Shown here: piece after piece, positions 5,302 through 58,703 of the stretch
How the letters are laid out: the number at the start of each line of letters is the position of its first letter
How positions within the stretch are numbered: position 1 is the stretch's first letter
Source of the DNA: Pseudomonadota bacterium
GTDB lineage: Bacteria > Desulfobacterota > Desulfobulbia > Desulfobulbales > CALZHT01
DNA: 64,000 bases
Reading direction: 5' to 3'
NCBI GenBank assembly: GCA_018823135.1
Contig: JAHJJF010000126.1
Location: forward strand, 14,302-78,301
The notes under the pieces: generated by a model
Seen by the model: only the letters and a program-made list of their open reading frames with translations
What the model was told of the DNA's origin: nothing
Databases searched by the model: none
Position numbers and translations under genes: made by a program

Positions 5302-6471
5302 TTATGATTCCTTCGCAAGCTTGACGCTTATCGCAACCTTATAAAGTATGGTGAGAATAAGGAACCCTGATGCCCACACACCCATTGTGATTGCGATTTC
5401 ACCAAAGGATGGGTAATACTCGGTAACATAATCCAACGGACTGGGGACAAAACCGCCGAGCACAAAACCCAAACCTTTGTCGATCCACAGAGAGAAAAAC
5501 ATGAGAAGACAGGCGATCATAATGGTTTTTTCATTTTTTCTTGTCTGAGGTGTAAAGAACAGCGCAAGGGAGGCAAAACCCATGATTACCGAAATCCACA
5601 TGAATTTGACAAGGTTATTATACATATGACCGTCATGCTCAAGGCCAAAGAAAAGATATTGCAGGGTATGTTTATGTCCTGGGATATTGCTGTAATATCC
5701 GACAAAAAATTCCAGGCCGACAAAAAAGAAATTCAGTAGAGCAGCATAACTGATAATGGTAATCAATTTCTGTGTGGCGGTCTCTCCAACATCGAATTTG
5801 CTAACCCTCTTCAAAATCAGAGCAATCAACAGAAGTAAAGATGGTCCTGCAGCAAAAGCTGAGGCGAGAAATCGAGGTGCGATAATCGCTGAAAGCCAAA
5901 AATGACGGCCACCAAGACCACAATAGAGCATTGCTGTTACTGTATGGATACTGATCGCCCAGGGAATTGAAAGATAGATAAAAGGCTTGAGCCATTTAGG
6001 CGGCGGCACTTCTTTAGCCTCGGAATTCAAAACTACCCATCCCACCAGGACATTCAGGAACAAATAGCCGTTAAGCACTATCATATCCCAGAAAAGCATG
6101 GAGTTCGGTGTCGGGTGCAAGAGAACATTCAAAGCGCGAGTCGGTTGACCTAAGTCGGCCATAATAAACATCAGACACATGGCAATGGCAGCAATTGCCA
6201 TAAATTCACCGAGAATGGTAATCCTGCCGAACGCCTTATAATTATGGACATAATAGGGGAGCACCAGCATGACACCCCCGGCGGCAACGCCGACAAGAAA
6301 GGTAAACTGAGAAATATAGATTCCCCAGGACACATCCCTGCTCATCCCTGTATATCCAAGACCATAGTTAAACTGTTGGACATAACATAATGCGCCGACT
6401 CCTATGATAGAGAGGAGAAAGATCATCCATGTCCAGTATCCTTGATTTCCCTTGAGTGCCTTTTCAATCAT
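5302..6471 (-). CDS. dsrP: DsrP, NrfD/PsrC-family integral membrane quinone-interacting subunit
   Basis: A polytopic membrane protein of NrfD length and character. It is the last gene of the M-K-J-O-P order. Confidence 0.8.
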   Translation of the reverse strand: MIEKALKGNQGYWTWMIFLLSIIGVGALCYVQQFNYGLGYTGMSRDVSWGIYISQFTFLVGVAAGGVMLVLPYYVHNYKAFGRITILGEFMAIAAIAMCLMFIMADLGQPTRALNVLLHPTPNSMLFWDMIVLNGYLFLNVLVGWVVLNSEAKEVPPPKWLKPFIYLSIPWAISIHTVTAMLYCGLGGRHFWLSAIIAPRFLASAFAAGPSLLLLIALILKRVSKFDVGETATQKLITIISYAALLNFFFVGLEFFVGYYSNIPGHKHTLQYLFFGLEHDGHMYNNLVKFMWISVIMGFASLALFFTPQTRKNEKTIMIACLLMFFSLWIDKGLGFVLGGFVPSPLDYVTEYYPSFGEIAITMGVWASGFLILTILYKVAISVKLAKES

Positions 6472-6482
6472 GACTTTTCACC

Positions 6483-7331
6483 TTATATGATGTAAAAAAC
6501 TGAAGGTAGGGTTCCCAGAGCTGGTTTACGTTGAATTGTAAATTTTGTCTTTAGGACCTTAGATATTTCCGAATGAGGATCATTCATATCACCGAAGTAC
6601 ATGGCTTGTGCACTGGCGGCAATCTCCACACATTTGGGCGGGAGATTCTCCGCAAGTCTTTCGGCGCAGAAATTACATTTTTCAACAACACCGCGCATAC
6701 GAGTTGGAAATTTTTCATTAAGATCTTTTATAAATTTCAATTTGCCATTTGCATCTTTCTCGCGGGGACTCCGCCAGTTAAAACTTCTCGCCCCGTATGG
6801 GCAGGCAGCCATGCAGAATCGGCAACCGATGCATCGATGGAAATCCATGATTACAGCACCGTTGGCAGCCTTGAATGTCGCCTTGGTCGGGCAGGCCCGG
6901 ACACATGGGGGATCATCACAATGGTTGCAGACTGCAAGAAACGGCAGTTGATGGAGTTCTTCATTCTTTTTATAATGGCTGTGATCCGGAAAGAGGTTTT
7001 CAAATTTTTCAATCCAGAGCCACTTGATTTCATCTTTGGGGTTGCCAAAATCAGGGACGTTATGAATCTGATGGCAGGCTGCTACACATTTTTCAGCCAA
7101 ACCTTTGTTTTCAGCAAACTTCTTGACATCAATCGCCAGTCCCAGGCGGACGCCGGTTGGTTTTTCCGCAGGCATCTCGCCGTGTGCATCACTAGGTGAA
7201 TCACTGTGGCCGGCAGAAGAGGAAGCCTGAACATTGCCTTTCATTAATAAATTTAATGCCGATGGCGCTGCAACACCCGCAATCGCGGACATCCCGGCGA
7301 TCTTCAATAAATTTCTACGCTTCATATCCAT
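6483..7331 (-). CDS. dsrO: DsrO, periplasmic Tat-exported 4Fe-4S ferredoxin-like subunit
   Basis: Twin-arginine signal MDMKRRNLLKIAGMSAIAG. Ferredoxin Cys clusters are present (CIGCRFCMAACP, CNHCDDPPC, CNFC). The start at 7331 overlaps the dsrJ TAA as TAATG, so the longer ORF-track start at 7400 is rejected. Confidence 0.8.
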   Translation of the reverse strand: MDMKRRNLLKIAGMSAIAGVAAPSALNLLMKGNVQASSSAGHSDSPSDAHGEMPAEKPTGVRLGLAIDVKKFAENKGLAEKCVAACHQIHNVPDFGNPKDEIKWLWIEKFENLFPDHSHYKKNEELHQLPFLAVCNHCDDPPCVRACPTKATFKAANGAVIMDFHRCIGCRFCMAACPYGARSFNWRSPREKDANGKLKFIKDLNEKFPTRMRGVVEKCNFCAERLAENLPPKCVEIAASAQAMYFGDMNDPHSEISKVLKTKFTIQRKPALGTLPSVFYII

Positions 7332-7708
7332 TACAGTGTCTCCTTGGGTAGGAAGTGGCAATCCCAACAATAGGGTTTGACAGATGCATATAGATGGCAT
7401 TGATCACAAAACTTCTCTTTGCTGGTATGGCAGACCATACAACCGTTCATCAGGCTTCTATCGTATGTTTTATTGCCGACTTTTAACTTTTCTCGATTAC
7501 CCTCGCGAAGAACATTATCGCGCCATTCGTTAAGCAGAACCATATGCGTAGTACGCATATACTGGGTGTCTTTGACACATTCCTTAACATCTTTAGGCTT
7601 TTCAACATTCGGGATGGCACCTGCATCGCCATGGTTGTACCAGATAGGAAATGTCATAAGGCCAGCAAAAATAATCAATCCGACTATTATTTTTCCACCG
7701 TCATACAT
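7331..7708 (-). CDS. dsrJ: DsrJ, membrane-anchored triheme cytochrome c
   Basis: Three CXXCH motifs (CMVCH, CDQCH, CWDCH) and one N-terminal TM helix. The start MYDGGKII at 7708 is preceded by GGAAGGG and follows the dsrK stop. Confidence 0.8.
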   Translation of the reverse strand: MYDGGKIIVGLIIFAGLMTFPIWYNHGDAGAIPNVEKPKDVKECVKDTQYMRTTHMVLLNEWRDNVLREGNREKLKVGNKTYDRSLMNGCMVCHTSKEKFCDQCHLYASVKPYCWDCHFLPKETL

Positions 7709-7712
7709 AATA

Positions 7713-9365
7713 TCACCCTTCCATTCCTGCAAGCGGAGCAAATCGAAGATCCTGATCGCGCTCTTTTTCACCATCCATTATCAGAGAATTTCCGACCAGT
7801 TCGGAAACGCCGCACACGCCAACATTTGGATTCCAGTATTCCATCAAAGCAAGCAGGGTAGCGCGATCAATAGCGCAGACACAGGAAAGCATGTTGACAC
7901 CGTATTTCTCTTCAACATATTTCACAGCATTTGCCCTAGGCAACCCGCCGCGCATCCTAAGTTCCATAATCTCACCGGTATTCAAGCCCGTGCCGCTGCC
8001 GCAGCAGAACGTCTGCTCACGAATGGCATTTTCCGGCATATCATGAAAATTATTGCAGACATTATTCAAAATATAGCGAGGTTCATCCAGCATCCCCATT
8101 CCCCGGGAAGGATTACATGAATCATGGAAAGTAACAACTCTATGGTCATTCCTGCTCTTATCTATCTTCAGTTTATTATGATAGATAAGGTCAGCAGTGA
8201 ATTCGCTGATATGAACCATTTTCAGGGCCGCGGCGTTATCAAAACGAGTACCGGTAATCGGCGATACGGGAATTTCCATGAAATCCCCCGGTTCATTCAT
8301 TGTCGCCATATATTGATGGACAACCCGCCACATATGGCCGCATTCACCGCCGAGGATCCACTTGACCCCCAGTCGTTTGGCCTCGGCGTACATCTTTCCG
8401 TTAAGCTTCTTCATCAATTCATTATTGGTAAACGATCCGAAGTTTCCGCCCTCTGATGAATAGGTGCTTATCGTATAGTCAAGCCCGATATGATCAAAAA
8501 TCAGCAGATAGCCCATAAAGGTAAATATGCCAGGATCGGCAAAAACATCTGCTGAAGGAATGACAAAAAGCACTTCAGCGCCTTTGCGATTGAAGGTCAA
8601 ACTGTTCAAGTGGATACCGGTTACTTCTTCGATATCATCGAGCAGAAATTCAGCATTTTCCTTGAAGGTATGGGGCTGAAGCCCGAGATGATTGCCGGTG
8701 CGGTTGGAATTTGCCGCAGGCTCAAGTATCCAGTTGGTGCCGACTCCGACCAGGTGGAGAAGTTCACGGGCCATCATGGTTATTTCTGCAGTGTCAATAC
8801 CATATGGACAGAAGACCGAGCATCTCCGACATTCAGTACACTGGTAAAAATACATGAACCATTCCTTCAGAACTCCAAAGGTCATTGGTCGCGCCCCGGC
8901 GAGTTTGCCAAGTATTTTTCCAGCCTTGGTGAAATCGTTTCTATAAACGGAACGCAGAAGTTCGGCTCTTAGAACCGGCATATTCTTCGGATCGCCGGTA
9001 CCCAGGAAGAAATGGCATTTATCTGCACAGGCGCCGCAACGAACACAGCAATCCATGAAGATTTTAAAGGAACGGAATTTATCAAGACGTTCCCTGATGC
9101 CGTTGATGATTATTTCCTTCCAGTTTTCCGGCAGTTTCCAGTCATCGCTTTCAACGTCCCATTCTCTGGGCTCGCCGAAAAGACCCGGTAAGCTTTTATT
9201 GTGGTACGCGACCATGCTGGCTTTTGCTGGATAACAATAATTCCCGGGCTTGAAAATTGCCGGAACATCCATCCAGTCTCTGGTCGGGATGGCTCCCGTC
9301 ATCAGAGAAGGATCTCTAGCAACCATAACACCTAATTCATCTGCTTTCGGCTGTGCCATTTTCAT
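7713..9365 (-). CDS. dsrK: DsrK, HdrD-like catalytic iron-sulfur subunit
   Basis: Contains CVRCGACADKC and CTECRRCSVFCP ferredoxin motifs and the CCG-domain signature FCCGSGTG. Confidence 0.85.
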   Translation of the reverse strand: MKMAQPKADELGVMVARDPSLMTGAIPTRDWMDVPAIFKPGNYCYPAKASMVAYHNKSLPGLFGEPREWDVESDDWKLPENWKEIIINGIRERLDKFRSFKIFMDCCVRCGACADKCHFFLGTGDPKNMPVLRAELLRSVYRNDFTKAGKILGKLAGARPMTFGVLKEWFMYFYQCTECRRCSVFCPYGIDTAEITMMARELLHLVGVGTNWILEPAANSNRTGNHLGLQPHTFKENAEFLLDDIEEVTGIHLNSLTFNRKGAEVLFVIPSADVFADPGIFTFMGYLLIFDHIGLDYTISTYSSEGGNFGSFTNNELMKKLNGKMYAEAKRLGVKWILGGECGHMWRVVHQYMATMNEPGDFMEIPVSPITGTRFDNAAALKMVHISEFTADLIYHNKLKIDKSRNDHRVVTFHDSCNPSRGMGMLDEPRYILNNVCNNFHDMPENAIREQTFCCGSGTGLNTGEIMELRMRGGLPRANAVKYVEEKYGVNMLSCVCAIDRATLLALMEYWNPNVGVCGVSELVGNSLIMDGEKERDQDLRFAPLAGMEG

Positions 9366-9433
9366 TCTTCCTTATAAGCTGATGTTTCTTGCTTGTGACA
9401 GCTCTAAATTTCTCCGGAGCTGGTATTTCCCTA

Positions 9434-10471
9434 TTACTCTTTAGCGGTTTCATCTGCTGCAGCTGGAGGCGGTGGCAATTCCTTTTCCACCGGCAGTCCC
9501 GCGTCAACCATGAACTCACGGAAATCATCCTCATAACCGGCATAGGAATGCGGTTTGATATTCGGATCGTTCCAAGGATTTACATGGCGGACCGAGCGAC
9601 TATTGTTGGCAAGATTCCGCGTCGGACTCATGAACACCCCGCCCAGATGCATCAATTTACTGAATGGGAAATAAGCCATGAGCGTACAAACCAGTGCAAC
9701 ATGGATAAAAAAGATTGATCCTATTTCACCAGTAAACTGCGGTGAAAAGGTGACCAGACCCATAAGCAATTTCTTGATGCTATCGATATCGACACGCAAA
9801 AAATAACGCATCAGGATACCGGTGCTGGCGATACCAAAAATAAGCAGTAATGGGAAATAATCGTTTGCAAGTGAAATGTAACGAATCTGGGGCATAAGAA
9901 CCCGGCGCACAAAAAGAAAGGTGACGGCAAGAAGTAAAATAAGACCCGACTGGTACAGAACCGGAACGCCGAGCTGCATAATACCGTCACCGAATTCCAA
10001 GGCCTGTACAAAAGATGGGACAGGATTGGTAAAAAGGCGCAAATGCCTTATAACAATAACAAGAAATGAATAATGAAACATCAGGCCGAACAGCCAGAGA
10101 TATTTACTTGAGCCGTATACCAGTTTTGGGCCGTCATGTACTTCCGCCTTCGTGTTTCTGAACAACGATCTGAAAAGAAATACCTCCAGAGCCATTCGGA
10201 TAAGCACGCCACTCAGGGTAGACGGATCATCAATCTTATCCTGTTTAATCCATGGCAACGAAGCAGCCTGACCACAGGTAGTTGGAATGCGGAATGGCAC
10301 CGGTGATTTCCCCCAATTTGTCACCCGGTAGATAAAGCCGCCGAGGAAAATTGCGAAGGTCACATAAGGTAAAACCACCCCAAACAACCATTGCCCTCCG
10401 GACACTTGCGCTCCGATAAGTGCCAATAGGATAATTGCCAAGACCGCAATTAAGGGATACAGGATTTTCAT
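9434..10471 (-). CDS. dsrM: DsrM, NarI-like dihaem cytochrome b membrane subunit
   Basis: A polytopic membrane protein that is first in the dsrMKJOP order. Its size and topology fit the NarI/HdrE type. Confidence 0.75.
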   Translation of the reverse strand: MKILYPLIAVLAIILLALIGAQVSGGQWLFGVVLPYVTFAIFLGGFIYRVTNWGKSPVPFRIPTTCGQAASLPWIKQDKIDDPSTLSGVLIRMALEVFLFRSLFRNTKAEVHDGPKLVYGSSKYLWLFGLMFHYSFLVIVIRHLRLFTNPVPSFVQALEFGDGIMQLGVPVLYQSGLILLLAVTFLFVRRVLMPQIRYISLANDYFPLLLIFGIASTGILMRYFLRVDIDSIKKLLMGLVTFSPQFTGEIGSIFFIHVALVCTLMAYFPFSKLMHLGGVFMSPTRNLANNSRSVRHVNPWNDPNIKPHSYAGYEDDFREFMVDAGLPVEKELPPPPAAADETAKE

Positions 10472-27980: not shown

Positions 27981-28991
27981 CTACTCTCTTTCCTTCGCTC
28001 TTGCCCGTAATTCTCTTAACATTTCCGCAGTAGGAAAACCTCCGACCGTTCCTGCCTTTACCCTGCCCCGCAACGGCTTCCATCTCTCCTGGAGCCAAAA
28101 CCACTGCTCGGGGTAAACTTTGATATAATCACTGATAGCCGTTGTAAAACTCTGGGTATCCTGCCGTGCGGCCTCTTCATCGTCGGGTAGTCTGGACAGA
28201 GCCATCTCTGGACCGATGATTATTCTGTGTTGACCGCCTTGCTGGTGGATAAAGACCGGCAAGGATGCGGTTTTTGTTTCCCTGGCCAGAATGGCCGGCA
28301 TCTTGGTGGTGCAGGCGTCACGCCCGACAAACATTGTTTTATACCCCTCATCCGTAAAAACATCCTGATCCATCAGGATGACTAAACGACCACGACCATC
28401 CAGTTCCTCCCTGATCTTTACCAGGGCGCCGCCTTTATAAATGATCGTATTGCCGCTTTTTACGCGAAGCTTTTCAAGGAGGTCTGTCAAATATGGATTG
28501 CTCTGTCGCTTGGCGACAAAAGAAACAGGGCCGAGCTTCCGGCCAAGAACCAGATTCATCAGTTCCCAATTACCGCAATGTCCGGAGATAAAAAAAACAC
28601 TTTTTCCTGTCGCCACCGCCTTCTGGTAATGCTCCACTCCTTCTATTGCTACATTGGCAATAATATCCTCACCAAGGCCGACATAGATCTTCAGCAGCTC
28701 CACCAGGGATTGCCCCTGAAGCATAAAACATTTTCTGGCTATCCGGCGTGGATTTGTTCCTTGTGAAATCCCTCCTGCGCTGATCGCCTTCCGGATGTTT
28801 TCAATCACCTTTCTCCGAAGGCGAGCAATGAGGAAGTAAAGCAGGAGGCCCATGTTTTTTCCAACAAATAAAGCTATCCTACAGGGAAGCATTACCAGAA
28901 AAAAGGCAAAGAAATAAATCAAGGCTATTTCAATAAGGTGTCTAATTTTCTTCATGGTCTTCCAAAAAGAATAGAGGTGATGGGATACCAC
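27981..28991 (-). CDS. Lysophospholipid/lipid A late acyltransferase (LpxL/HtrB family); start uncertain (GTG 28991 or ATG 28955)
   Basis: An N-terminal TM segment, then an FISGHCGNWE (HX4E-type) acyltransferase motif. Length is typical of the family. Confidence 0.7.
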   Translation of the reverse strand: MVSHHLYSFWKTMKKIRHLIEIALIYFFAFFLVMLPCRIALFVGKNMGLLLYFLIARLRRKVIENIRKAISAGGISQGTNPRRIARKCFMLQGQSLVELLKIYVGLGEDIIANVAIEGVEHYQKAVATGKSVFFISGHCGNWELMNLVLGRKLGPVSFVAKRQSNPYLTDLLEKLRVKSGNTIIYKGGALVKIREELDGRGRLVILMDQDVFTDEGYKTMFVGRDACTTKMPAILARETKTASLPVFIHQQGGQHRIIIGPEMALSRLPDDEEAARQDTQSFTTAISDYIKVYPEQWFWLQERWKPLRGRVKAGTVGGFPTAEMLRELRARAKERE

Positions 28992-29183
28992 TGTTTTGAG
29001 CTATGAGCATAGTACTGCAAGTTGAAAATTCTCCCAATTAATAAGCGGCAGCACATGCTGAATATTCAGTACGTGTGTACTACATTGTGATATATTTTAT
29101 TGACTTATTTTCTATTGTAGTTTCATGGTATTTAAGAGATTGGATACTGTAACCTTTATAAACTCTCACCTGAAAACGATTCA

Positions 29184-29426
29184 ATGCTGAAGGCGCACAA
29201 TAAAAAGATTACAGAGATAATTGGTCAGATACACTGCCCAAAAGATTTCCGATGCGTCACGCCGGATCTCGATAAACTCTGTCTGGCAAGGGATATCGGC
29301 ATGGAAACCTATCTCCAGTGTTTTGCCAGGAATAAAGCAGATTGTCCGTTTTCAGCCCCATTTGCCAACGAAGTTTATTGTAAATGCCCTTTGCGCATAT
29401 ATCTGAAAAAGAATTTACATAAATAA
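29184..29426 (+). CDS. Small cysteine-rich hypothetical protein (80 aa, 7 Cys)
   Basis: An ORF containing HCPKDFRC...LC...LQC...DCPF...YCKCP. There is no obvious Shine-Dalgarno, and coding status is supported only by its length and Cys pattern. Confidence 0.4.
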   Translation: MLKAHNKKITEIIGQIHCPKDFRCVTPDLDKLCLARDIGMETYLQCFARNKADCPFSAPFANEVYCKCPLRIYLKKNLHK

Positions 29427-29807
29427 GCCCTTCGTAAAGCAACCGGCATCAACGTCTTTTAGACGGCACAGTTACCAATACCCCCAAAAAAAGAACTCGT
29501 CGAAGAATTATGTCACAGCAAAAAAACAAACCATGTAATTGCTCCATCCCTGTAAATGGAACGACGGTTGCCATGGAGAGAAAAAGGCTGTTTAAAGTCA
29601 ACCGCCTAACCCAGATAAACTGGAAATAAATCAAGGCCCTGGATAAGTACCTTAACAGTAGGTGTAAGTTATTAGAATTAAATTGGTTATTAAAAGTCTT
29701 GCCACTCAGTTCAGTACTCGCTTGACGGGTAAAAAACACGATAATCACTAATAAGGTACTAAAATACCCAATTGTCAGAGATGATATCGTCACTATAGAT
29801 CACCAGG

Positions 29808-29849
29808 AATCTGGAAGGAATGTTCCCCGCATCTCTTCCAGATTTTTTT
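29808..29849 (+). terminator. Rho-independent terminator (plus strand)
   Basis: AATCTGGAAG (29808-29817) pairs with CTTCCAGATT (29835-29844) and runs into TTTTTTT. Confidence 0.7.
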
Positions 29850-30274
29850 ATTTGGACTTCACCCCTCTCCCATGTCTAACTTGGTTGTCCAGGTAAAAAT
29901 TAAATCCGTTGATATTCCAATCTCTTTAAGATCAACATGCGAGTCAGGGTGTTTTGGAAATACGCAGCCCGGGGCTGACCTTTGTAGTACAAGGTTTTTA
30001 GAACCAAAGGAATGTTGCTAGAAATATATTCGGTTGATAGTTGGCATTAGTTGGAAGCATAATGAATTCTTCATAACTAGATTTTGAATGTATATTCGTT
30101 AGCATTTTTCATTGCTATAAAGCTACACTCCGCCATAATTATTTGTTCAATTTTCTGGAATATTTCTATTTTCCGGAAAGAACAACAGCCCCGTTTAGTA
30201 TATTATTAAATTATAAGATACTGCAACTTGTTGGAATGTTAGGTAATCTTCTAAAGTAATTAAATTGCTTGTTT

Positions 30275-30289
30275 TGGCATAATTCTTGC
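30275..30289 (+). promoter_or_regulatory. Sigma-54 (RpoN) -24/-12 type promoter
   Basis: TGGCAT-AATTC-TTGC matches TGGCAC-N5-TTGC with exact GG/GC spacing. It lies about 310 nt upstream of the ATG at 30597. Confidence 0.6.
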
Positions 30290-30596
30290 CACATTACAGT
30301 AGGATTTATGTGCGCTTTTAAAGTTTTATGTGAGTAGAAAGCATCTGCGTCTCTGTTTCAATTAATAGTGCAACAGATATGCTTATTACTGCAACGAATA
30401 TTGCATTTGATGCAAATAGCATCACTGTTCGGCGGCAACGAAATGATCGCTGGGCGTAACGAAAAGGAGGGTCTGTTTATCGGAAATGACCAGAAAAATT
30501 AATTTTACAAGTAGATGCAAGATGTTCATTCAACATCTTAAAATTTTGAAAAATGAAGATTTACAGTAGTAATCATAAAATGAAAAAGGAGAAAAA

Positions 30597-31208
30597 ATGA
30601 AGAAGAAATTTTTAGCAGGATTGGCAACGGGAGTGGTTATGTTTGGAATGGTAAGTGTTTGTGCCGCAGGAGATGTTATTTGTAGTATCAACCCCGCTAC
30701 TGGTGAATGTTTTGGGGAACGACTTCCACTTAGAGAAAATCTTAACCTTGGTGCCTGCTTGAACTGCGGAGACGGCATCTTTAAAGGCAATAAAATGAAT
30801 GTTGTTTTTGACAATGGTAGTATACGTGGAATCTGGGGAACGGGTGGGACCACGATTCTCTCAATTGAAACCAATACTGGGAAAAGAATTCAGTTTGATA
30901 CCAATCCGAATGGAGCATCTTTTAAATTAAATAACCCTCATACCGTGGCTATCTGGGGGACAGGTGGAACCACGAGGGAGATTACAGAATATATAACTCA
31001 AGAAGACATGGCCGCTATCTGGGGAACTGGCGGTACGACTTTTGACGGTATCTGGGGAACTGGCGGCACTACCATTACCTCATGGGATATAGATGGCGAT
31101 TCAATATTTATTATGTATGACGATGGCCAAGGAAACTTAGGTATAGCCATTGATATTGATGAACGTGCAACCGTGTTAGTTTCCCCAGAACCACCACCTT
31201 TTCAATAA
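30597..31208 (+). CDS. Secreted hypothetical protein with four exact IWGTGGTT repeats
   Basis: AAGGAG Shine-Dalgarno and signal peptide MKKKFLAGLATGVVMFGMVSVCAAG. The repeats are at nt 30831-30854, 30951-30974, 31017-31040 and 31050-31073. A 4-Cys segment follows the signal peptide. The C-terminus is VSPEPPPFQ. Confidence 0.75.
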   Translation: MKKKFLAGLATGVVMFGMVSVCAAGDVICSINPATGECFGERLPLRENLNLGACLNCGDGIFKGNKMNVVFDNGSIRGIWGTGGTTILSIETNTGKRIQFDTNPNGASFKLNNPHTVAIWGTGGTTREITEYITQEDMAAIWGTGGTTFDGIWGTGGTTITSWDIDGDSIFIMYDDGQGNLGIAIDIDERATVLVSPEPPPFQ

Positions 31209-31526
31209 CAATACAGTTTTCTGTAATTGAAGATTCGGTGTATTTGGGAAAACAGTGTAATAGGACAGGATTCCCAATTGTCACCTGAATATTTTGAATT
31301 TTCTAATTAATAATTACAACAACTTGTCTTCAATTTTCGAACAGGTGGAAATTGATGATACCTCTAATGAAGGTCGAAAACTGACAAGACTTAAAATTTA
31401 GGAAAGCCAAAAGACATATTCAAAATGGCATACTCAGCAACATACAGTACATGAAGCTTCATGATGTGCTGGCAGACATCTTAAAAATAGACGAATTGAA
31501 CAAAACGGAAGTAATCTTTACTTTCA

Positions 31527-32012
31527 ATGAAAAAGAAACTTTTAGCAGGATTGGCAACAGGATTGTTTATAGTTGGCAGGGATGGCAAATGCTACCTTAA
31601 TTGGTGATTAAATTACTGCAAGTGGGAGTTTAATTACTCCAAGTGAAGCAACTATTTCTGATGAAGTAGAGTTTCTTTTTGCCGAAATTTATTAGGGCGA
31701 CACTGTTGGTTTTGATTTTGATGCGGACTCTCTTACAATAACAGTCGATGGGTCCAGGCGGTTATAGCTGGGTTTGATACAGCCATAACTGGACTAGACA
31801 TTATGTCTAACTAGGGTTTTCCTGGAAATGTTCTCAGCGATTACAGTTTCACTTCCGATAGTATTACCTTACACTGGGGGGATTCGGATGCTAGTAGCCC
31901 TGCGCAATTGGTTTTTGGTATAGATACTGCGCCAGTCCCAGAACCTGCCACCATGCTCCTCTTCGGCACTGGATTAGTCGGCCTTGCTGGTTTAAGAAGA
32001 AAGAAAAAATAA
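31527..32012 (+). pseudogene. Decayed PEP-CTERM protein gene (frameshifts and in-frame stops)
   Basis: The 5' end encodes MKKKLLAGLATGLFIVG, and 19 nt (TTTTAGCAGGATTGGCAAC) are identical to the 30597 gene. The 3' end encodes an intact sorting signal, VPEPATMLLFGTGLVGLAGLRRKKK*. Between them every frame is interrupted, and no piece reaches 60 aa. Confidence 0.75.
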
Positions 32013-32038
32013 CCCCTTCTCCATATGGAGATTTCAGG

Positions 32039-32070
32039 AAGGCAGGGTCAGTGACGGCTCTGCCTTTTTT
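32039..32070 (+). terminator. Rho-independent terminator after the PEP-CTERM pseudogene
   Basis: AAGGCAG pairs with CTGCCTT and is followed by a T-run. A second hairpin GCCCT..AGGGC plus TTTTTT lies about 40 nt further on. Confidence 0.65.
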
Positions 32071-32355
32071 GCGTTTTCGTATAGCTGCTATGAACCGACG
32101 GCCCTGGTTTTCACTAGGGCTTTTTTATGTCCATAATCAATGAAAGCTTGCGTGAAGTGTATTCTGCCAGTATTTTTTTTGGGGGATAATTTTAACTCTT
32201 ACAAAAATTCATCCGGTGTTATAGATACCACGAAAATTATAATTCTCTCCGATTTGAAAGTGACCCAACAGATCACAACTGATTATCAAAAAAAATGCCG
32301 GTAACAGGATTATCCAACAACCGGACAATAACTTTTCAGGATGCAGTGAAATATT

Positions 32356-33084
32356 ATGAAATCAAGATTTTTATGGCGGGCATTCAGAAATCGTTTCCGC
32401 GACAACAGAACTGAACTGAACGTCCTCAGAAAACATATACAGCCAAATGATATTGTCTGTGATATTGGTGCAAATAAGGGCAGCTATACGTTTTGGCTTT
32501 CAAAGTGGGCTTCCAATGGAAAAGTCATTGCATTTGAGCCCCAGAAAACTTTAGCAGATTATCTGAAACAAGCGACTAACGCATTAAAACTCAATAATGT
32601 TGTCGTTGAGGAAAAAGCGGTTTCAGCCATATCAGGTAAAGCTTGCTTATTTATCCCGGGCGGGTCGGTTTCACCGGGGGCATCATTGAGCAATGCCGTC
32701 TCAGATCGAGAAAACTGCTGCAAAGAAACAGTTGATGTTGTTACCCTTGATGAATATTTTCCAAGCAACCAGAGAGTGAGTGCCTTAAAGATTGATGTTG
32801 AGGGTTCAGAACTGGATGTTTTCAAAGGGGCAATGCGAATATTAAAAGAAAGTAACCCCCTTCTGGTTTTTGAGTGTGAAAATCGTCACCTGACACAGGG
32901 GAGTGTTAACGATGTTTTCGAGTTTTTAATTCCTTTAGGATATCGCGGCTATTTTGTTTTTCAAAATTCATTAGTCAATATTAAACAATTCAATTCACAG
33001 TTACATCAGCGGCAGACAGGGAGCCGTTATTGGGATGAAAAAGATTATGTAAATAACTTTGTATTTTTAAAGGGGCAGTCCTGA
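32356..33084 (+). CDS. FkbM-family SAM-dependent methyltransferase
   Basis: DIGANKGSYT...VIAFEP...LKIDVEGSEL...FEC is the pattern typical of the FkbM family. Confidence 0.75.
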   Translation: MKSRFLWRAFRNRFRDNRTELNVLRKHIQPNDIVCDIGANKGSYTFWLSKWASNGKVIAFEPQKTLADYLKQATNALKLNNVVVEEKAVSAISGKACLFIPGGSVSPGASLSNAVSDRENCCKETVDVVTLDEYFPSNQRVSALKIDVEGSELDVFKGAMRILKESNPLLVFECENRHLTQGSVNDVFEFLIPLGYRGYFVFQNSLVNIKQFNSQLHQRQTGSRYWDEKDYVNNFVFLKGQS

Positions 33085-33197
33085 TTATTCAGCGCAGCGG
33101 ACACTGAAACCATGCCATTGAATTATAAACTTATAGTTTCATTTCCTGCTTGTCATTTACCATTCTGGCAAGGGTCAGGGAATTTTCCGACAGGCTC

Positions 33198-50420: not shown

Positions 50421-51572
50421 TCATATCCTGTTCATCACAAAGCCGGCAAGTTCGTTTCCGGTTCGGTAATCAATATCCAGGAATGACATGCCTATATTGA
50501 ATTTATCTTCAGAAGAGGGTTCAACCCGCACAACCGTGCTGGCAAAAAGCTGCTGTTTTTCATCCTGAAGGGTGAACTGAGTCAGTAATCTCGTACCAGG
50601 GGAAATATTGTCGCTGCTTTCAACCATCATCCCCCCCCTGCTGATATCTCTGCATTGAGCAGCATGCATGATATCATCGTTGAATCGCTGCTCTTTAAGT
50701 TTGATATCTCCATGGCAGTCAACACGAACATAGCGTCGTTTGTCTCCGGAAAAAAGAACTATCCTGTTCTTTCCGGCGGCTTTGGCGCTGTACAGAGCGG
50801 AATCGGCAGCCTCGACCAGCCTTTGTGGTGCCGTTGTATCATAGGGATATGAAGCAAGCCCCCCGCTTATGGTAACCTTAAGAACCCGACCCTCATAGAC
50901 GAATCGCGCCTCATCAATCTCCTGCCTGATCCGCTCTCCGATCTCATGGGCATGCACTTTGGGGGTATCAGGGAGCAGAAGGAGTATTTCCTCGCCGCCA
51001 TAACGGACCGCAACATCCTCAATTCTCTTGCGCTTGCGGATGATTTCCGCAACACTTTTTAAGATCAGATCACCGCCCAGGTGTCCGTATGTGTCATTAA
51101 TCAGCTTGAAATTATCCAGGTCAAAGAACAACAGCGATAAATCACTGTGATGCCTTTCGGCGCGAGAAACTTCGCGGGTAAAAACCTCGTTAAATACCCG
51201 ACGATTCAATAAGCCGGTCAATTCATCCAGTTTTGAAAACTGGGCGGTTTTTTCATAGAGATGGATTTCTATTACCTTAGGATTCTTCAAGTACTTGTGA
51301 ACCGTACAGAAATAGTCGCAGATGGCGGTCCTTAAGCTTACCGAGCGGCCCAAATCCGATTTCATCTCAGCATAGTGAAGAATAATTTTCTGCCAGTAAT
51401 TTTCAGCCTCGGCGTTAGAGAGGTCAATGCTTGCCAGAATATTCAGTATAACTGAATAAACAGATTTTCCATGTTCGGCGACAAGTTGCCGCATCTCAAC
51501 CAGCAAACCGTCTTCATCATTTGAAAAGTCTTCAAGGGTCGCAAGTATGGTATCTCGTAAGGTCTGATTCAT
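50421..51572 (-). CDS. Diguanylate cyclase (GGDEF) with a C-terminal PilZ domain
   Basis: RYGGEEI active site with an RIED I-site 5 residues upstream. PilZ motifs RRYVRV and DISRGGM are present. The ATG at 51572 is preferred over the adjacent TTG. Confidence 0.8.
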   Translation of the reverse strand: MNQTLRDTILATLEDFSNDEDGLLVEMRQLVAEHGKSVYSVILNILASIDLSNAEAENYWQKIILHYAEMKSDLGRSVSLRTAICDYFCTVHKYLKNPKVIEIHLYEKTAQFSKLDELTGLLNRRVFNEVFTREVSRAERHHSDLSLLFFDLDNFKLINDTYGHLGGDLILKSVAEIIRKRKRIEDVAVRYGGEEILLLLPDTPKVHAHEIGERIRQEIDEARFVYEGRVLKVTISGGLASYPYDTTAPQRLVEAADSALYSAKAAGKNRIVLFSGDKRRYVRVDCHGDIKLKEQRFNDDIMHAAQCRDISRGGMMVESSDNISPGTRLLTQFTLQDEKQQLFASTVVRVEPSSEDKFNIGMSFLDIDYRTGNELAGFVMNRI

Positions 51573-51960
51573 CAAATTGGTTCTGAAAACTCTTTTTACT
51601 GAGTAAAGGAGGCTATATCGATTAGAAAAAAAACTAACCAGTAAATTCTCTTGCTTGGGGAACTGCTTGAAAACGCCGCCCGTTTAATCATTTTGCGAGC
51701 CAGTTAAGACCCGAAACGATATAGTATTTTTGCTTTATTTTATGCAAAAATCATTCCGCGCCGCATGATATAAATCTTTGAGAAACATATCAAACAGTTA
51801 GAGGCAGTCATGAAAATTGACACAGAAAAGATTATGGGAAGCCGTTCGGAACAACGGAAACTATTACATGATTCCGGAAAAACAAAACTACGAAACTCTA
51901 CAGGTTTATCAGGAATTATACATCACAGAAATTTGAACAGCACCAGCCAGTGCATCCTGT

Positions 51961-54478: not shown

Positions 54479-55279
54479 TTATCTTTCTTCCGCCTGCCTT
54501 CTGAGTTCCCATGGCGAAGATCTGGTTGCCTTCATGTAAAAGACATTGGGCTTGGTACCAGCCTCCGGCCGCAGCACCCATACCTGTTTTTCTATCTGAT
54601 GGACCATTTTATAGATAACATTTTCCGGGTCGGAGACATCACCGAACATCCGGGTTCCGGTTGGACAGGCATTAGCACATGCGGTGAGCTTCTTGCCTTT
54701 TGAAAGACGTGTATCCCAACAGAAATTGCACTTATCAATGGCGTGTACTTCCTCATTGAAGTATCTGGCCTCGTACGGGCAGGCAAGAATACACATCTTG
54801 CAACCGATGCACTTCTTCCTATCCATCATTACAATACCGGTGGTTGGATCCTTGTAAGTAGCTTTGGTCGGACATCCACGGGTGCATGGCGCCTCATTAC
54901 AGTGATTGCAAAGGATCGGGATAAATTCCCGCTGCCTGCCGATGGCATCCGTAACCCTTTTCCGCAGAATTCTGGTCCGGTATCCATAGTCCGGAACATC
55001 ATTGGTTTCTTTGCAGGCGGTTACACATTGTTCACAGTCGATGCAAAGACCCTGTCGAATCACCATACTGTAATGCGGCCGGTAAGGGTATTGCTCTAAA
55101 AAGTCACTCGAGCTTGCAAACGCTTCATTGACATTGGAGACCAGCGACAGCAGTTTGCCGCCGGCAAAAACGCCGGTGACGGCAAAGCCGATTTTTAAAA
55201 ATGCCCTCCGTTCCAGACCGGTGACGGAGCGCAGGCCTTCATCCTTAATTGTATCAAGGTTTATTTTCGAAAACTTCAT
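54479..55279 (-). CDS. Tat-exported 4Fe-4S ferredoxin-type subunit (NrfC/PsrB/DsrO-like)
   Basis: ERRAFLKIGFAVTGVFAGG twin-arginine signal. Cys clusters are CIDCEQCVTAC, CNHCNEAPC, CIGCKMCILACP and CNFC. Confidence 0.85.
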   Translation of the reverse strand: MKFSKINLDTIKDEGLRSVTGLERRAFLKIGFAVTGVFAGGKLLSLVSNVNEAFASSSDFLEQYPYRPHYSMVIRQGLCIDCEQCVTACKETNDVPDYGYRTRILRKRVTDAIGRQREFIPILCNHCNEAPCTRGCPTKATYKDPTTGIVMMDRKKCIGCKMCILACPYEARYFNEEVHAIDKCNFCWDTRLSKGKKLTACANACPTGTRMFGDVSDPENVIYKMVHQIEKQVWVLRPEAGTKPNVFYMKATRSSPWELRRQAEER

Positions 55280-55317
55280 TATATCTATTCCTCCTTAATT
55301 GCTCAGTTCAGAAATCA

Positions 55318-56643
55318 TTAATCGTCACGATCTACCTTGCGAACCCGGTGATGACGCTTGAGGGATTCTTCTTCGGATTCACCTTCCTTCTTGTAGTGAA
55401 TTCCACCACAACCAGGGCAGACATACGCGCCTGGAGGGACGATTTCATGTTTCTGGAACTGATGGCCGTTCAGCATCCTCTCACCTAATAAATAAAAAAC
55501 ACCGGCGAATGAAAGGCCCGCTACCACTACCGAAATTTCATGAAAAGAAGGGGTGTATTCAAGAAGGGAGCTGTACTCATCAACACCAAGTGAATGAAAG
55601 ACCGGAACGATCTGACCGGCAAGCACCAGGTCATAACGCATGAAAAATATGCCGATCATCATAAATGACGATGCAATAAACATCTTCCTGAGGTCCCTGC
55701 CCTCGGACTGAATCAACAGAATAAAAGGAATCACCATGCCCAGCAGTACTTCAGCACCCCAGAAATTAAGGGCATACCTGCCGAGAACAAATGCTTTAAT
55801 GGCTACATATTTTTCAGGGGCGACAACACCGCTGATAATTTTCCATATGGTAAAAAACATGATAATCGCAATCAGCATCGTAGTGAGCTGACACACCGCC
55901 TTGATGCTTCTCTCCATGCGACGGCTCATGATATGCCGGTCGATTCTCCAGGAAATGCAGGTAAACAGAATGATTGCGGCACCGCCTGACATCATTGCCG
56001 AAACAATGAAATAAATCGGCATATAAGGACCGTACCAGAACTCACGACCGTGCAGCATGCCGAACACCGCTCCGAGATTGCTATGGGCCGCAACCCCGAA
56101 GATGACGCCGAACAAACCGAAAATTCTAGACCAGGCGTGATTCTGATCAAGGAGGAAGAAATATTCAATCCCCAGGGCGATCAGATACAGGGTATAGAGA
56201 GTTCCCATCCACCACATATTCGATGTGAGGTTTGGCGAAAACGCATTATAAATCGGCATGCGGAAAGGATTTTCCACATCAAAAAAGATAATAATAAAGC
56301 CGCCGAGCATGAAGGTAATGGAAAGAAATACCGCTCTTTTTGCTATGGGCATATAAGGTTCATAGCCAAAGACATGGCCGATGGATGAAACAAGACAGAG
56401 TCCGGTGGATGTTACAACGCAGAAAATATAGGCAGAAATCAACAGACCCCAGGGGATCTGGCGGGTGACGCCGTAAACATGGCGATACCCGGTAAAAGTA
56501 CCATGCAGGCCAACGGCCAGGCCGTAGAAAACCAGGAGTCCCAACAGGCCAAGAATACCCAGTAAAACCTTATTGGATCGAAAAAGGGCCCCCACCCCGG
56601 TGTACCCCCATCTCTCCGCTGTATCTTTGTGTATTTGAATCAT
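55318..56643 (-). CDS. NrfD/PsrC-family membrane quinone-interacting subunit with a charged C-terminal tail carrying one CPGC motif
   Basis: A polytopic membrane protein. The tail is ...YVCPGCGGIHYKKEGESEEESLKRHHRVRKVDRDD. The ATG at 56643 follows AGAAGGAGAG. Confidence 0.8.
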   Translation of the reverse strand: MIQIHKDTAERWGYTGVGALFRSNKVLLGILGLLGLLVFYGLAVGLHGTFTGYRHVYGVTRQIPWGLLISAYIFCVVTSTGLCLVSSIGHVFGYEPYMPIAKRAVFLSITFMLGGFIIIFFDVENPFRMPIYNAFSPNLTSNMWWMGTLYTLYLIALGIEYFFLLDQNHAWSRIFGLFGVIFGVAAHSNLGAVFGMLHGREFWYGPYMPIYFIVSAMMSGGAAIILFTCISWRIDRHIMSRRMERSIKAVCQLTTMLIAIIMFFTIWKIISGVVAPEKYVAIKAFVLGRYALNFWGAEVLLGMVIPFILLIQSEGRDLRKMFIASSFMMIGIFFMRYDLVLAGQIVPVFHSLGVDEYSSLLEYTPSFHEISVVVAGLSFAGVFYLLGERMLNGHQFQKHEIVPPGAYVCPGCGGIHYKKEGESEEESLKRHHRVRKVDRDD

Positions 56644-56873
56644 TCGTGTTCTCTCCTTCTCTAGTTCTTTTCTGTGATCGGCAAAACCAAAGCCTCGCAC
56701 CCTGCCGGAAAAGAAAATCTCTTTTCTTGTTCCGCCCGGGAAAAAATTTAGTCCCGTCAGAAAATCCGTTCCTTGCGCTCATGCGAGACCGACAAAGATT
56801 AAATAAAAGTGACGCTAATGTTACTTGTTAAGATATACCCCTCCTTTCTTTATTTATTCTTAAGACCAAATAA

Positions 56874-57620
56874 TCAACTATTAAATATTTTTTTAAAGAT
56901 ATCCAAAGGAACCGGAATAAGCGTGGACGTCTTATCCGACGTACCTATTTCACGGATGGTCTGCAGATAACGAAGCTGCAGGGCGGCTGGATGCTGGTCA
57001 ATGAGACTTGCTGCCTCGCAGAGCTTGGCAGCTGCCTGATATTCCCCGTCGGCATTGATGATGGCGGCACGCCGTTCCCTTTCGGCCTCGGCCTGTTTTG
57101 CCATGGCACGCTGCATGTTTTCAGGCAGATCAATTTCCTTGACTTCGACCTTATGGATTTTGACTCCCCAGGGTTCGGTTTCCTGATCAAGGATTACCTG
57201 CATTTTTTTATTGATTGCGTCACGTTCGGATAAAAGATGATCAAGGTCATCCTGACCGCAGATACTTCTGAGTGTCGTCTGGGCCAGTTGCGATGTGGCC
57301 ATCTGATAGTCCTCAACATCGATAAGCGACCTGACAGCATCCACCACCTTGAAATAGACGACAGCACTGACCTTTATCGAGACATTGTCCTTGGTAATGA
57401 CATCCTGACCAGGAACCTCCATGGTTATAGTTCGCAAATCGACCTTGGGCATTCTCTCAACAAGGGGAATAAGAAATACCAGGCCCGGTCCTTTGGTGCC
57501 GATAACCTTACCGAGGCGGAATAAAATGCCTTCCTGGAATTGACTGACCATCCTCACCGAAAGAAAAAAAAGAATTACGCATAACGGAAATAGAAAAATC
57601 ACCCAATACAGCGTCGTCAT
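56874..57620 (-). CDS. SPFH/band-7 (stomatin-like) protein
   Basis: FQEGILFRLGK...DLRTITMEVPGQDVITKDNV...REAAIINAEGE-like region. The ATG at 57620 follows GGGGGAG. Confidence 0.85.
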   Translation of the reverse strand: MTTLYWVIFLFPLCVILFFLSVRMVSQFQEGILFRLGKVIGTKGPGLVFLIPLVERMPKVDLRTITMEVPGQDVITKDNVSIKVSAVVYFKVVDAVRSLIDVEDYQMATSQLAQTTLRSICGQDDLDHLLSERDAINKKMQVILDQETEPWGVKIHKVEVKEIDLPENMQRAMAKQAEAERERRAAIINADGEYQAAAKLCEAASLIDQHPAALQLRYLQTIREIGTSDKTSTLIPVPLDIFKKIFNS

Positions 57621-57719
57621 ATGCTCCCCCAAAAAATGCCCATGCAAGAGTTTCTTTACAATTACTGAATACAACATCCCAAAACACTGAAATATCCCGA
57701 AAATCTTTTTACTGATTTA

Positions 57720-57757
57720 TACCACAGTGTGGTAGTGAATATGCCACATTGTGGTAT
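57720..57757. promoter_or_regulatory. Two palindromic operator-like sites 22 bp apart centre to centre
   Basis: TACCACAgTGTGGTA (57720-57734, perfect 7-1-7) and CCACAtTGTGG (57744-57754). They lie in the divergent SPFH/GNAT intergenic region. Confidence 0.5.
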
Positions 57758-57931
57758 AAATCTGCAAGGTTTTTCTTTATAAGAATGATCTATTTTGATA
57801 CACTTTTCTTATTACTATTTTCGGCATGAACGCTTACGGGTTGCAAACAATATGGCGGGATCAGTTGCCCGCATATTTTCCGATCCATGCGGATTGAAGC
57901 CCAGTGATTATCTTACTCGCAGGAGGTGCGC

Positions 57932-58528
57932 GTGGACTACCTTAAAGCTATTGAATACTCATCAAATCAAAAGGATAAAATTTCAAATATTGAGACAGTG
58001 ATCAGTGCCTTGTGGGAAAACCATAATACTGTCATCCGGACCGGATACGGGGAAGAATTCGATGTCAGGTTTTCTCAAAGAGAAAATTATTTTGATGTGG
58101 TGCTCAGCATAAAAAACAATGACATTGGCTTTATCACCTTGAAACAGAAAAACAGCGGCAGATATTCAATTGTCAACGACTCGTCAATCAATCCGCATCC
58201 GGCAATAACCCAGACCGCGGGCCATGGGCTTGCAGTAAAAGCAGAGCATCGAAAAAGAGGCATAGGCGCAGCCCTCCTGAGTCTCGGGGTCGGAATTGCC
58301 CAGAAAGATTATAAGGCCCGGAGCACTGATGAGCCTTTCGAAGTAATTGCAACCGATGTCACCGGCCTGGGATACGGCTGCTACCTGCATTTCGGGTTTA
58401 AAATTCTCCCTGGGATGAAAGAAACCACCGCACATTACCGAGATGCAAACCGTTTGCCGGAATTGAAAATTCTGCGGAGAAAGGCAGGCCTTCTCCAGCG
58501 CTTGAAAAAAAGAATGCATCGGGATTGA
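57932..58528 (+). CDS. GNAT-family N-acetyltransferase
   Basis: HRKRGIGAALL acetyl-CoA motif. The GTG at 57932 lies 5 nt after AGGAGG. Confidence 0.65.
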   Translation: MDYLKAIEYSSNQKDKISNIETVISALWENHNTVIRTGYGEEFDVRFSQRENYFDVVLSIKNNDIGFITLKQKNSGRYSIVNDSSINPHPAITQTAGHGLAVKAEHRKRGIGAALLSLGVGIAQKDYKARSTDEPFEVIATDVTGLGYGCYLHFGFKILPGMKETTAHYRDANRLPELKILRRKAGLLQRLKKRMHRD

Positions 58529-58643
58529 TTATACGTGTCCCTGGATCCCTTGTCGTCGCGGTGAAAGCCCAGATTCAAAGAAGAGCCTTACCGGGGGTGA
58601 TGACAGAGCAGGCTGGTTTGCCACCGCCACTGACGGATTCAAC

Positions 58644-58678
58644 AAAAAAAAGCCCCTCGATAATCGAGAGGCTTTTTT
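58644..58678. terminator. Bidirectional rho-independent terminator
   Basis: AAAAAAAA-AGCCCCTCGATAATCGAGAGGCT-TTTTTT. Confidence 0.75.
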
Positions 58679-58703
58679 GTTTCATATGAAATAATCCGGT
58701 TTA

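Follow-up and report, generated by a model that had tools for sequence, protein, structure and literature searches.

What holds IWGTGGTT fixed? A small exported protein with four exact octapeptide repeats and its orphan family

What keeps four copies of the octapeptide IWGTGGTT identical within one small exported protein? The question is raised by a gene in a 64-kb stretch of DNA from a bacterium of the Desulfobulbales (contig JAHJJF010000126.1; the whole stretch that was analysed is referred to as the window, and its features lie on the forward strand unless stated otherwise). The gene, located at 30597-31208, starts with ATG and encodes a product of 203 amino acids that is on record as a 'hypothetical protein' (MBU0729921.1 / MBU1710937.1, KKE17_13120). 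It is a real and intact gene for a small exported protein, i.e. the open reading frame (ORF) is uninterrupted and homologues of it are on record. An earlier reading of the window, made by a model from the letters alone (the sequence-only reading), had pointed out a signal peptide, a segment with four cysteines and four octapeptides in a 203-residue product preceded by a strong Shine-Dalgarno sequence, and all of these were recovered, the repeats at the positions it had given. The Shine-Dalgarno sequence, as read from the DNA, is AAGGAG at 30586-30591, 5 nucleotides (nt) ahead of the ATG. Residues 1-24 (MKKKFLAGLATGVVMFGMVSVCAA, 30597-30668) form the signal peptide, of which both the pattern and the cleavage site were read by eye: the MKKKFLAGLATGVVMFGMVSVCAA-GD junction shows a Sec-type layout, with a KKK n-region that is followed by a hydrophobic core, positions -1 and -3 being occupied by small residues. 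A reading as a lipoprotein was dropped, as VSVC puts a Val at position -1 and leaves no lipobox (likewise judged by eye).

The protein is small and acidic, and it is rich in Gly, Thr, Asn and Ile; the residue counts tallied for the mature chain of 178 residues amount to 11.8 % Thr, 7.3 % Asn and 6 % basic residues. The cysteines are found at positions 29, 38, 54 and 57, the latter two forming a CxxC pair (C54-L-N-C57, 30756-30767) that was recognized in the family alignments discussed below, and the former two being, in the same alignments, peculiar to the window protein.

Selection on the octapeptides

The four exact copies of IWGTGGTT start at residues 79, 119, 141 and 152 (30831-30854, 30951-30974, 31017-31040 and 31050-31073, respectively), which corresponds to spacings of 40, 22 and 11 residues, and a back-translated search found no further copy elsewhere in the 64 kb. 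At the DNA level, the four units of 24 nt share 18-21 of their 24 positions in pairwise comparison, and all of the differences are located at third codon positions. Taken together, the four copies record at least 11 synonymous changes and not a single non-synonymous one. Of the 72 single-base changes that can occur in the repeat codons, 20 are synonymous, from which we calculate the probability of such a result under neutrality at about 8e-7 (0.278^11). A like pattern, restricted to third positions, is seen among the four IWGTGGTA copies of the homologue P0003, which stems from an organism with a GC content of 57 %. The synonymous-only divergence of the repeats implies long-term purifying selection on the peptide. 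The repeats are therefore under purifying selection at the level of the peptide and are not the product of a recent DNA duplication, which is what the sequence-only reading had argued from the differing codons.

An orphan family and a motif in several scaffolds

Homologues were collected from 5.8 billion protein clusters by means of a word-indexed search, performed in three rounds of which two employed profiles, and from 1.84 billion representatives that HMMER searched exhaustively. The combined searches yielded a family of eight members, namely the window protein, P0002-P0005, P0010, P0012 and P0016, to which P0017 adds a strain variant that is 97.5 % identical. The GC content is 0.57-0.70 for the loci of those homologues that were measured and about 0.42-0.44 for the gene region in the window, and the presence in hosts of such widely differing GC content implies a patchy distribution of the family. 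Pfam and NCBIfam returned only sub-threshold noise for the protein and nine motif-bearing relatives (KH_1, thiazolyl_B, LAGLIDADG_3), a sequence profile search of the PDB gave no match below an E-value of 0.19, and a full-text search of the literature for IWGTGG, WGTGGT, IWGTDG and IWGTNG retrieved degenerate DNA primers only; the earlier claim that the motif fits no known repeat family thus holds for each of these sources. As judged from the searches, the protein belongs to an extremely rare, unnamed and undescribed family.

Various candidates were rejected in the process. The KH domain (PF00013) scored 19.4 bits in Pfam against a cut-off of 21.5, and the KH domains of FUSE-binding proteins appeared as PDB profile matches at E-values of 0.19-0.5 only; the KH fold, with its GxxG loop, binds RNA in the cytoplasm, the protein is exported, and we take the similarity for a chance likeness of the type 'IxGxGG'. 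The WD40 proteins P0009 and P0011 were removed from the list of putative members because their 'VRLWKxDGT' matches were spurious, and P0013 and P0014 because they carry unrelated low-complexity repeats. The collagen matches that a synthetic query of concatenated motifs produced against the PDB are an artefact of the Gly periodicity of that query.

All members of the family have in common the signal peptide, a segment like 'FGPFDLGxCxxC' (with the Cys pair kept in the five closest members only), a block of the form 'FExGxxxGIWGTGGxAxLxFETxDGxRxHxNWxPxGGA' and a C-terminal 'hhIxhDxxxA' strand. The first octapeptide is the sole repeat position that is invariant in 8/8 members (G78, I79, W80, G81 and G84 in the eight-member alignment). 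Units 2-4 have diverged in P0004, P0005, P0010, P0012 and P0016 (VWLTRGT, FWEWRGT, YLRFAPD, LYLDPNTT and LLFDPEIT). More precisely, the second unit decays to VWLTRGTS or FWEWRGTS in P0004 and P0005 and elsewhere may also read YLRFAPD; the third, an exact copy in the window protein, has decayed in P0010, P0012 and P0016; and the fourth is present only in the window protein and in P0003, the equivalent position reading LYLDPNTT or LLFDPEIT in other members. Where units 2-4 diverge, the strands on either side of them are retained, as is the C-terminal 'hhIxhD' strand. The orthologues that do retain four identical 8-mers are only 34-39 % identical overall. Viewed in this alignment, the repeat positions are homologous sites of what appears to be a conserved folded domain, sites that have been kept or homogenised as IWGTGGT in some lineages and have drifted in others. 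The expectation expressed earlier that orthologues should conserve the octapeptide was borne out for the closest homologues, which keep the motif, and failed for the distant members, in which units 2-4 decay.

The motif also occurs in three scaffolds beyond the eight-member family. Over 53 instances in 14 proteins its consensus is [GA]-I-W-G-T-[GDN]-G-[TVA]-[AST], with position 5 being G in 30, D in 16, N in 6 and A in 1 of the instances and with a G always next. One scaffold comprises P0006-P0008, which contain 6-9 units at distances of 8-46 residues, have an N-terminus that looks like a signal peptide by eye and each end in CxxFxC. Another is a metagenomic protein (loci L007/L008) that is encoded downstream of BlaI/BlaR1-like genes and in which GIWGTGGVA recurs at a period of 11. 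The third is propeller-like and consists of P0015 and a protein encoded at locus L009, in which blades of the form 'DLNAIWGTGGVAIAVGDNG...' start with the unit; P0015 carries four identical IWGTGGVA units, reading 'LNAIWGTGGVAIAVGD', that are spaced 40, 26 and 20 residues apart. Pfam gave no hit on the motif-bearing relatives in these other scaffolds. Both P0006-P0008 and the L007/L008 protein resemble the window protein in the octapeptide consensus, the variable spacing and the variable copy number, and differ from it in their non-repeat sequence and in their neighbours (ABC transporter, peroxiredoxin, BlaI/BlaR1). The raw pattern matched 79 times in 185,579 genomes and 83 times in the JGI metagenomes. 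None of the 79 genome matches was confirmed, some 30 being expected by chance in six-frame space by our own estimate, and a second genome scan, with IWGT[DNG]GT families, delivered one propeller-like protein; the metagenome scan delivered the period-11 family only. The low raw counts, which we estimate to represent in part chance six-frame matches, imply that the module is rare.

A short acidic Trp repeat was observed beside the IWG unit in two proteins that differ in other respects: PDVD[DE]W[FV] occurs four times in the middle region of family member P0010 (residues ~115-141), and VPDPVEW three times in the protein encoded at L009:5587-6525 (residues ~118-136). The repeat may constitute a second small module that travels together with the IWG unit.

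Possible roles of the repeats

The explanation that we propose, and to which we assign about an even chance, is that the product is a small Sec-exported all-beta domain in which the octapeptides are strand/tight-turn units, the Trp-bearing turns having an additional role. The sequence IWGTGGT[TA] would be the repeated structural unit, composed of a short strand ending in I-W, a tight turn G-T-G-G and a following strand that starts at T-T/A. Octapeptide 1 would open a four-strand unit of some 40 residues and octapeptide 4 a C-terminal unit of some 45 residues; these two longer, blade-like units (residues 79-118 and 152-197) would be separated by two short hairpins (residues 119-140 and 141-151), an arrangement that explains the spacing of 40, 22 and 11 residues. 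The exact conservation of the four copies in turn implies that each of the Trp-bearing turns has a role beyond holding the fold. The turns could bind a ligand at the surface or in the matrix (e.g. a polysaccharide), or they could mediate self-association outside the cytoplasm, so that, with low confidence, the product might be viewed as a surface or matrix protein whose Trp turns contact a ligand or each other. The geometry of strands and turns and the division into two units are inferred, as is any function.

The proposed geometry is based on the second of two AlphaFold (AF2) runs, in which the only semi-confident stretch (residues ~46-105, with block means of the predicted local distance difference test, pLDDT, of 54-77) is modelled as a meander of four strands, VVFD-(NG)-SIRGIW-(GTGG)-TILSIET-(NTG)-RIQFDT. 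In this model IW would close a strand, GTGG would be the turn and TT would start the next strand. In textbook turn statistics, an N, D or G followed by a G is the signature of the two-residue type I' hairpin turn, and position 5 of the motif, which is confined to G, D or N (with one A in 53) ahead of an invariant G, agrees with that preference. The designed tryptophan-zipper hairpins, synthetic 12-16-mers in which short strands of Trp and Thr surround a two-residue N/D/G-G turn, offer a likeness of sequence pattern; cross-strand pairing of Trp residues would be conjectural in the window protein.

The likeness to propeller blades is found at the level of profiles. The family aligned to P0015 with a probability of 95.5 % (hhalign, E-value 1.4e-8), successive units being aligned to each other, and to the L009 protein with a probability of 62 %. 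Within the window protein, the unit 1 segment aligned to the C-terminal segment (probability 77 %, E-value 2e-5), an indication that a unit of ~45 residues has been duplicated within the protein. The L009 protein, with its 'DLYGIWGTDGAVLVAGD' blades, matches the designed 'Cake' beta-propellers (6tjg/6tjh) at an E-value of 9e-5, in an alignment that places its VWGTDG/IWGTDG units opposite 'ASPVIGEDG', a segment that recurs in the Cake repeat. As the octapeptide unit opens the blades of some propeller-like proteins, the family could be a cut-down relative of bacterial propeller blade repeats, or convergent with them. The blade repeats of P0015 and L009 ('L-x-[GA]-[IV]-W-G-...-V-x-A-V-G-D-x-G') share the [IV]WGT[GD]G element, which is there located at the start of each unit, and P0015 is akin to the window protein in its irregular spacing. 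The window protein differs from propellers in that its 178 mature residues accommodate at most two units of blade length, whereas propellers have four or more four-stranded blades of ~40 residues arranged in a ring. The sequence-only reading had held the irregular spacing to be incompatible with a regular propeller or solenoid; given that the units of P0015 are themselves 40, 26 and 20 residues apart, such spacing is no argument against a beta-repeat fold.

Several observations weigh against the all-beta explanation. The first AlphaFold run, with five sequences, reached a mean pLDDT of only 35, and the second, on the mature chain with eight sequences, a pLDDT of 43 and a predicted template modelling score of 0.42; neither a closed propeller nor a solenoid was predicted in the AF2 models, and a Foldseek comparison of the second model to the PDB gave no match at an E-value of 0.001 or lower. 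The hhalign scores are driven for the most part by the octapeptide, so that homology to propeller blades is unproven and convergence is possible. Moreover, purely structural repeats normally diverge, and identical 8-mers point to a constraint that lies outside the structural model. The genomic context gives no functional lead either, since the neighbours differ at every locus compared (L001, L004, L005, L010-L018), and include an extracytoplasmic function (ECF) sigma factor, a Ser/Thr kinase and an FG-GAP protein at L001, tsf at L004, an FHA protein and a WD40 protein at L010, and a transglutaminase-like protein at L013. As a separate observation, the ECF sigma factor (PF07638) of L001 is followed, within 3-1243 on the reverse strand, by the Ser/Thr kinase-domain protein, upstream of and divergent from P0003, and the FHA-domain protein of L010 follows the homologue P0012; genes for phospho-Thr signalling are thus found close to two of the family members, perhaps by coincidence.

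The octapeptides might be repeated sites of post-translational modification, either O-glycosylation of Thr or a modification of Trp, on an exported carrier, in which case selection would keep the modification and not the fold. This reading, which is compatible with the structural explanation, would account for four exact copies with only synonymous differences, for a motif that is much better conserved than the scaffold in P0001-P0003, and for a Thr/Asn-rich composition as found in PEP-CTERM proteins suspected of glycosylation (PMC1569441); in addition, an FkbM-type methyltransferase (Methyltransf_21) is encoded 1.1 kb downstream. We nevertheless consider it unlikely, as a glycosyltransferase or other modifying enzyme is not consistently adjacent in any of the loci compared and units 2-4 are dispensable in 5/8 family members. 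We know of no bacterial sequon that resembles the octapeptide. There is a similarly small chance that [GA]IWGT[GDN]G[TVA][AST] is an undescribed portable extracellular module, i.e. a Trp-bearing hairpin that binds a specific ligand or is targeted by a specific modification, that moves between unrelated secreted scaffolds and that owes its exact sequence to this role and not to folding alone; the scaffolds involved would be those of the eight-member family, of P0006-P0008 with their CxxFxC end, of the L007/L008 protein with its period of 11 and of the propeller-like proteins. The units might also act collectively, with Trp/Gly/Thr hairpins that stack to give fibres or a scaffold for the matrix, much as functional amyloids or ice-nucleation-type repeats do. 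The short and identical copies of the motif abound in Gly, Thr and aromatic residues, the motif forms near-contiguous arrays in related scaffolds (at a period of 8-16 in P0006-P0008 and of 11 in the L008 protein), and the gene adjoins the remnant of a (matrix-associated) PEP-CTERM gene. Yet the window protein has only four units, which are set in a globular-looking conserved domain and do not make up a contiguous periodic array, there is no partner gene for secretion or nucleation, and AF2 yields no solenoid, all of which renders self-assembly a distinctly poor prospect.

The amatoxin core IWGIGCNP resembles the octapeptide, and four identical cores, together with the transglutaminase-like protein that follows the L013 homologue, could recall a precursor that is cut into four IWGTGGTT peptides, similar to a ribosomally synthesised and post-translationally modified peptide (RiPP) or a signalling peptide. 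The sequence-only reading had listed such a multi-core precursor among its suggestions, but we regard it as highly improbable. Where a precursor would have its leader, the protein carries a Sec signal peptide, the residues that flank the four units (RG/IL, VA/RE, AA/FD and DG/IT) do not share a cleavage motif, and no radical-SAM, YcaO, lanthipeptide, peptidase or export genes for maturation were found within 10 kb on either side, the neighbours in the window being housekeeping genes, the methyltransferase and HrpA. In distant members it is the core positions that decay and the non-core scaffold that is kept, and an NCBIfam match to a thiazolylpeptide family (12.1 bits against a cut-off of 30) is noise. 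It could finally be asked whether the gene has a function at all, or is a decaying passenger of a degenerate and variable AT-rich island. It is located in a stretch of ~4 kb (about 28900-33100, between a lipid-A acyltransferase gene and hrpA) with a GC content of 0.32-0.44 versus ~0.50 in the flanks, which also holds a PEP-CTERM pseudogene and an unmatched Cys-rich ORF of 80 residues; the family is tiny and patchy; and in the metagenomic contig L019, a 97.5 %-identical relative that carries a near-identical copy of the gene, both flanks are unrelated to the window and 5/8 of the differences in the coding sequence are non-synonymous. Against this stand the intact ORF with its strong Shine-Dalgarno sequence, the long-term purifying selection that is evident from the repeats, and the fact that the coding sequence diverges between the window and L019 by 1.3 % versus more than 10 % for the 5' leader. 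A functionless passenger is in our view a minor possibility.

If the all-beta explanation is true, the window protein stands for a new family of exported proteins with beta repeats that is very rare (~8 members among ~15 billion predicted proteins) and whose sharply conserved Trp-Gly-Thr hairpin is met again in a small number of unrelated secreted scaffolds. Among the repeat modules described from bacterial surfaces and matrices this would be a small addition, and it would provide a compact natural case of a strand-turn unit that is held identical by selection. It has no bearing on a long-standing open question, and the rarity of the family and its unconserved context limit its reach; we consider the family an orphan of moderate interest that merits a structure and a mass spectrum but is not a major surprise.

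The locus, its candidate promoter and the PEP-CTERM neighbour

Upstream of the gene lies a candidate sigma-54 -24/-12 element of the form TGGCAT-N5-TTGC (TGGCATAATTCTTGC, 30275-30289), which has the canonical spacing and precedes the ATG by 307 nt. If it were the promoter, the transcript would have an AT-rich leader of 307 nt (30290-30596). The pattern TGGCAY-N5-TTGC matches once in the window, where 0.44 matches are expected and 35 % of shuffled windows contain at least one; estimated from composition, the chance of a site in the AT-rich upstream region alone is ~0.001, which becomes ~0.05 window-wide with ~55 genes. Some 100-130 nt upstream of the -24 box, a direct repeat of 15 nt (TTCAATTTTCTGGAA / TTCTATTTTCCGGAA, 30146-30178, 18 nt from start to start) could, speculatively, be an activator-binding site, its distance from the element being one at which such sites are expected; a repeat as good (13/15 within 10-30 nt) arises in 8/300 dinucleotide shuffles of the region. 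Searches of the 5' leader for a structured RNA or riboswitch retrieved nothing from Rfam and gave an RNA fold z-score of -1.53, and scans for sigma-70 promoters and terminators remained at or below chance level. No comparable -24/-12 site was found upstream of the six homologues that were checked.

The comparison with L019 bears on both the promoter and the locus (L003 is an identical copy from the same strain). A cassette corresponding to ~30426-31368 is 97-99 % identical in L019 and is embedded between the unrelated flanks mentioned above, which suggests a variable or recombining locus. The coding sequence is 98.7 % identical at the nucleotide level (8 differences in 612 nt); all octapeptides are intact and the sole change inside a repeat is synonymous. 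Identity is 98.7-99.4 % over the coding sequence and the following 160 nt. The leader (30426-30596) differs by 18 substitutions and 7 indels in 171 nt, and the homology stops ~150-170 nt upstream of the ATG, that is between the sigma-54 site and the gene. Beyond this breakpoint the L019 sequence is unrelated and has TTGACA and TATAAT hexamers; the contig ends short of the position equivalent to the site. The site that the sequence-only reading had reported is therefore present and correctly spaced, but its function as a promoter is unproven, as it is statistically weak, located 307 nt from the gene, absent before the six homologues checked and separated from the gene by the L019 divergence. 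That 30275-30289 is the working sigma-54 promoter of the repeat gene seems to us a reasonable though rather doubtful proposition, and sigma-54 control, if real, would only extend an architecture that has already been described for PEP-CTERM genes.

That architecture, of the sigma-54 (PrsK/PrsR) regulon, consists of a single gene that is preceded by over 200 nt of DNA and by a -24/-12 motif; a few such sites were noted before other genes as well (Haft et al. 2006, PMC1569441). The sites are located 23-221 nt from the start codon, and a 17-nt motif 1 that ends in TTTACA lies 32-92 nt upstream of the sigma-54 motif (PMC1569441). The window gene is similar in that it is apparently a single-gene unit with an upstream non-coding region of more than 200 nt containing a -24/-12 element. 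It is dissimilar in that its site is 307 nt from the ATG, in contrast to the published maximum of 221 nt, and in that TTTACA was not found in 30150-30275, motif 1 being judged here by its TTTACA end.

The proteins can be compared in the same way. A Thr/Asn-rich composition that is low in basic residues has been described for extracellular PEP-CTERM and LPXTG proteins (PMC1569441), and the window protein is like PEP-CTERM proteins in being small, exported, without a Pfam match, Thr/Asn-rich and poor in basic residues, as well as in having S-P-E-P at its C-terminus, which reads SPEPPPFQ*. Unlike the PEP-CTERM signal (TIGR02595), the PEP is not followed by a transmembrane helix or a basic cluster. 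Downstream of SPEPPPFQ*, a translation in all three frames reveals neither a hydrophobic helix nor an Arg/Lys cluster, in agreement with the earlier remark that this part is missing; a reading as a truncated PEP-CTERM gene was dropped because a remnant of the tail was not found. NCBIfam gave no PEP-CTERM hit on the window protein, its homologues are without any PEP motif, and it is higher in Cys than typical PEP-CTERM proteins. It is thus not a PEP-CTERM protein, nor can it be recognised as a propeller or plausibly be called a RiPP precursor.

A genuine PEP-CTERM gene is represented next door by a degraded pseudogene at 31528-32013, which in three-frame translation shows several stops and frame changes and has an intact VPEP...RRKKK tail ending in VPEPATMLLFGTGLVGLAGLRRKKK*. 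The signal-peptide DNA of the repeat gene and of the pseudogene (31526-31574) is 88 % identical over 49 nt (the L019 copy of the gene, near-identical to that of the window, served as the query), which supports the proposed paralogy of the two signal peptides. The pseudogene is absent at the equivalent position in L019. No terminator was found between the repeat gene and the pseudogene, the first terminator-like hairpins being located at 32036-32069 and 32100-32121. An Rfam match to the small RNA MicX (31995-32128; 31.9 bits against a gathering score of 75, E-value 2e-4) overlaps both of these and probably merely reflects the hairpins after the pseudogene.

Besides the repeat gene and the pseudogene, the AT-rich stretch contains the FkbM-type methyltransferase and the ORF of 80 residues (29184-29426), which has 8 Cys residues (MLKAHNKK...CPKDFRC...CKCPLRIY) and no match in Pfam; the identical protein occurs once more, on a 6.5-kb contig of a Logan assembly. 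Elsewhere, the window carries the gene run rpsB-tsf-pyrH-frr-uppS-cdsA-dxr-rseP and a dsrMKJOP-like cluster (5302-10471), as well as NrfD, 4Fe-4S and NapC-type cytochrome genes, a gene content that agrees with an origin from the Desulfobacterota. Among the latter, two paralogous NapC/NirT-type multihaem cytochromes of ~480 residues (58704-60149 and 61363-62829, within 54479-62829 on the reverse strand) are found near an NrfD-like protein (55318-56700) and a 4Fe-4S protein (54479-55279), a second membrane redox module beside the dsrMKJOP-like cluster. An ORF of 774 residues on the reverse strand (2448-4775) joins a pyridoxal-phosphate-dependent, cysteine-synthase-like PALP domain (residues 6-284) to a complete cysteinyl-tRNA synthetase (tRNA-synt_1e, DALR_2, CysS_C), so that Cys synthesis and Cys charging are, unusually, combined in one product. 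At 50421-51575, also on the reverse strand, a GGDEF diguanylate cyclase is fused to a C-terminal PilZ receptor domain for cyclic di-GMP in a protein of 383 residues.

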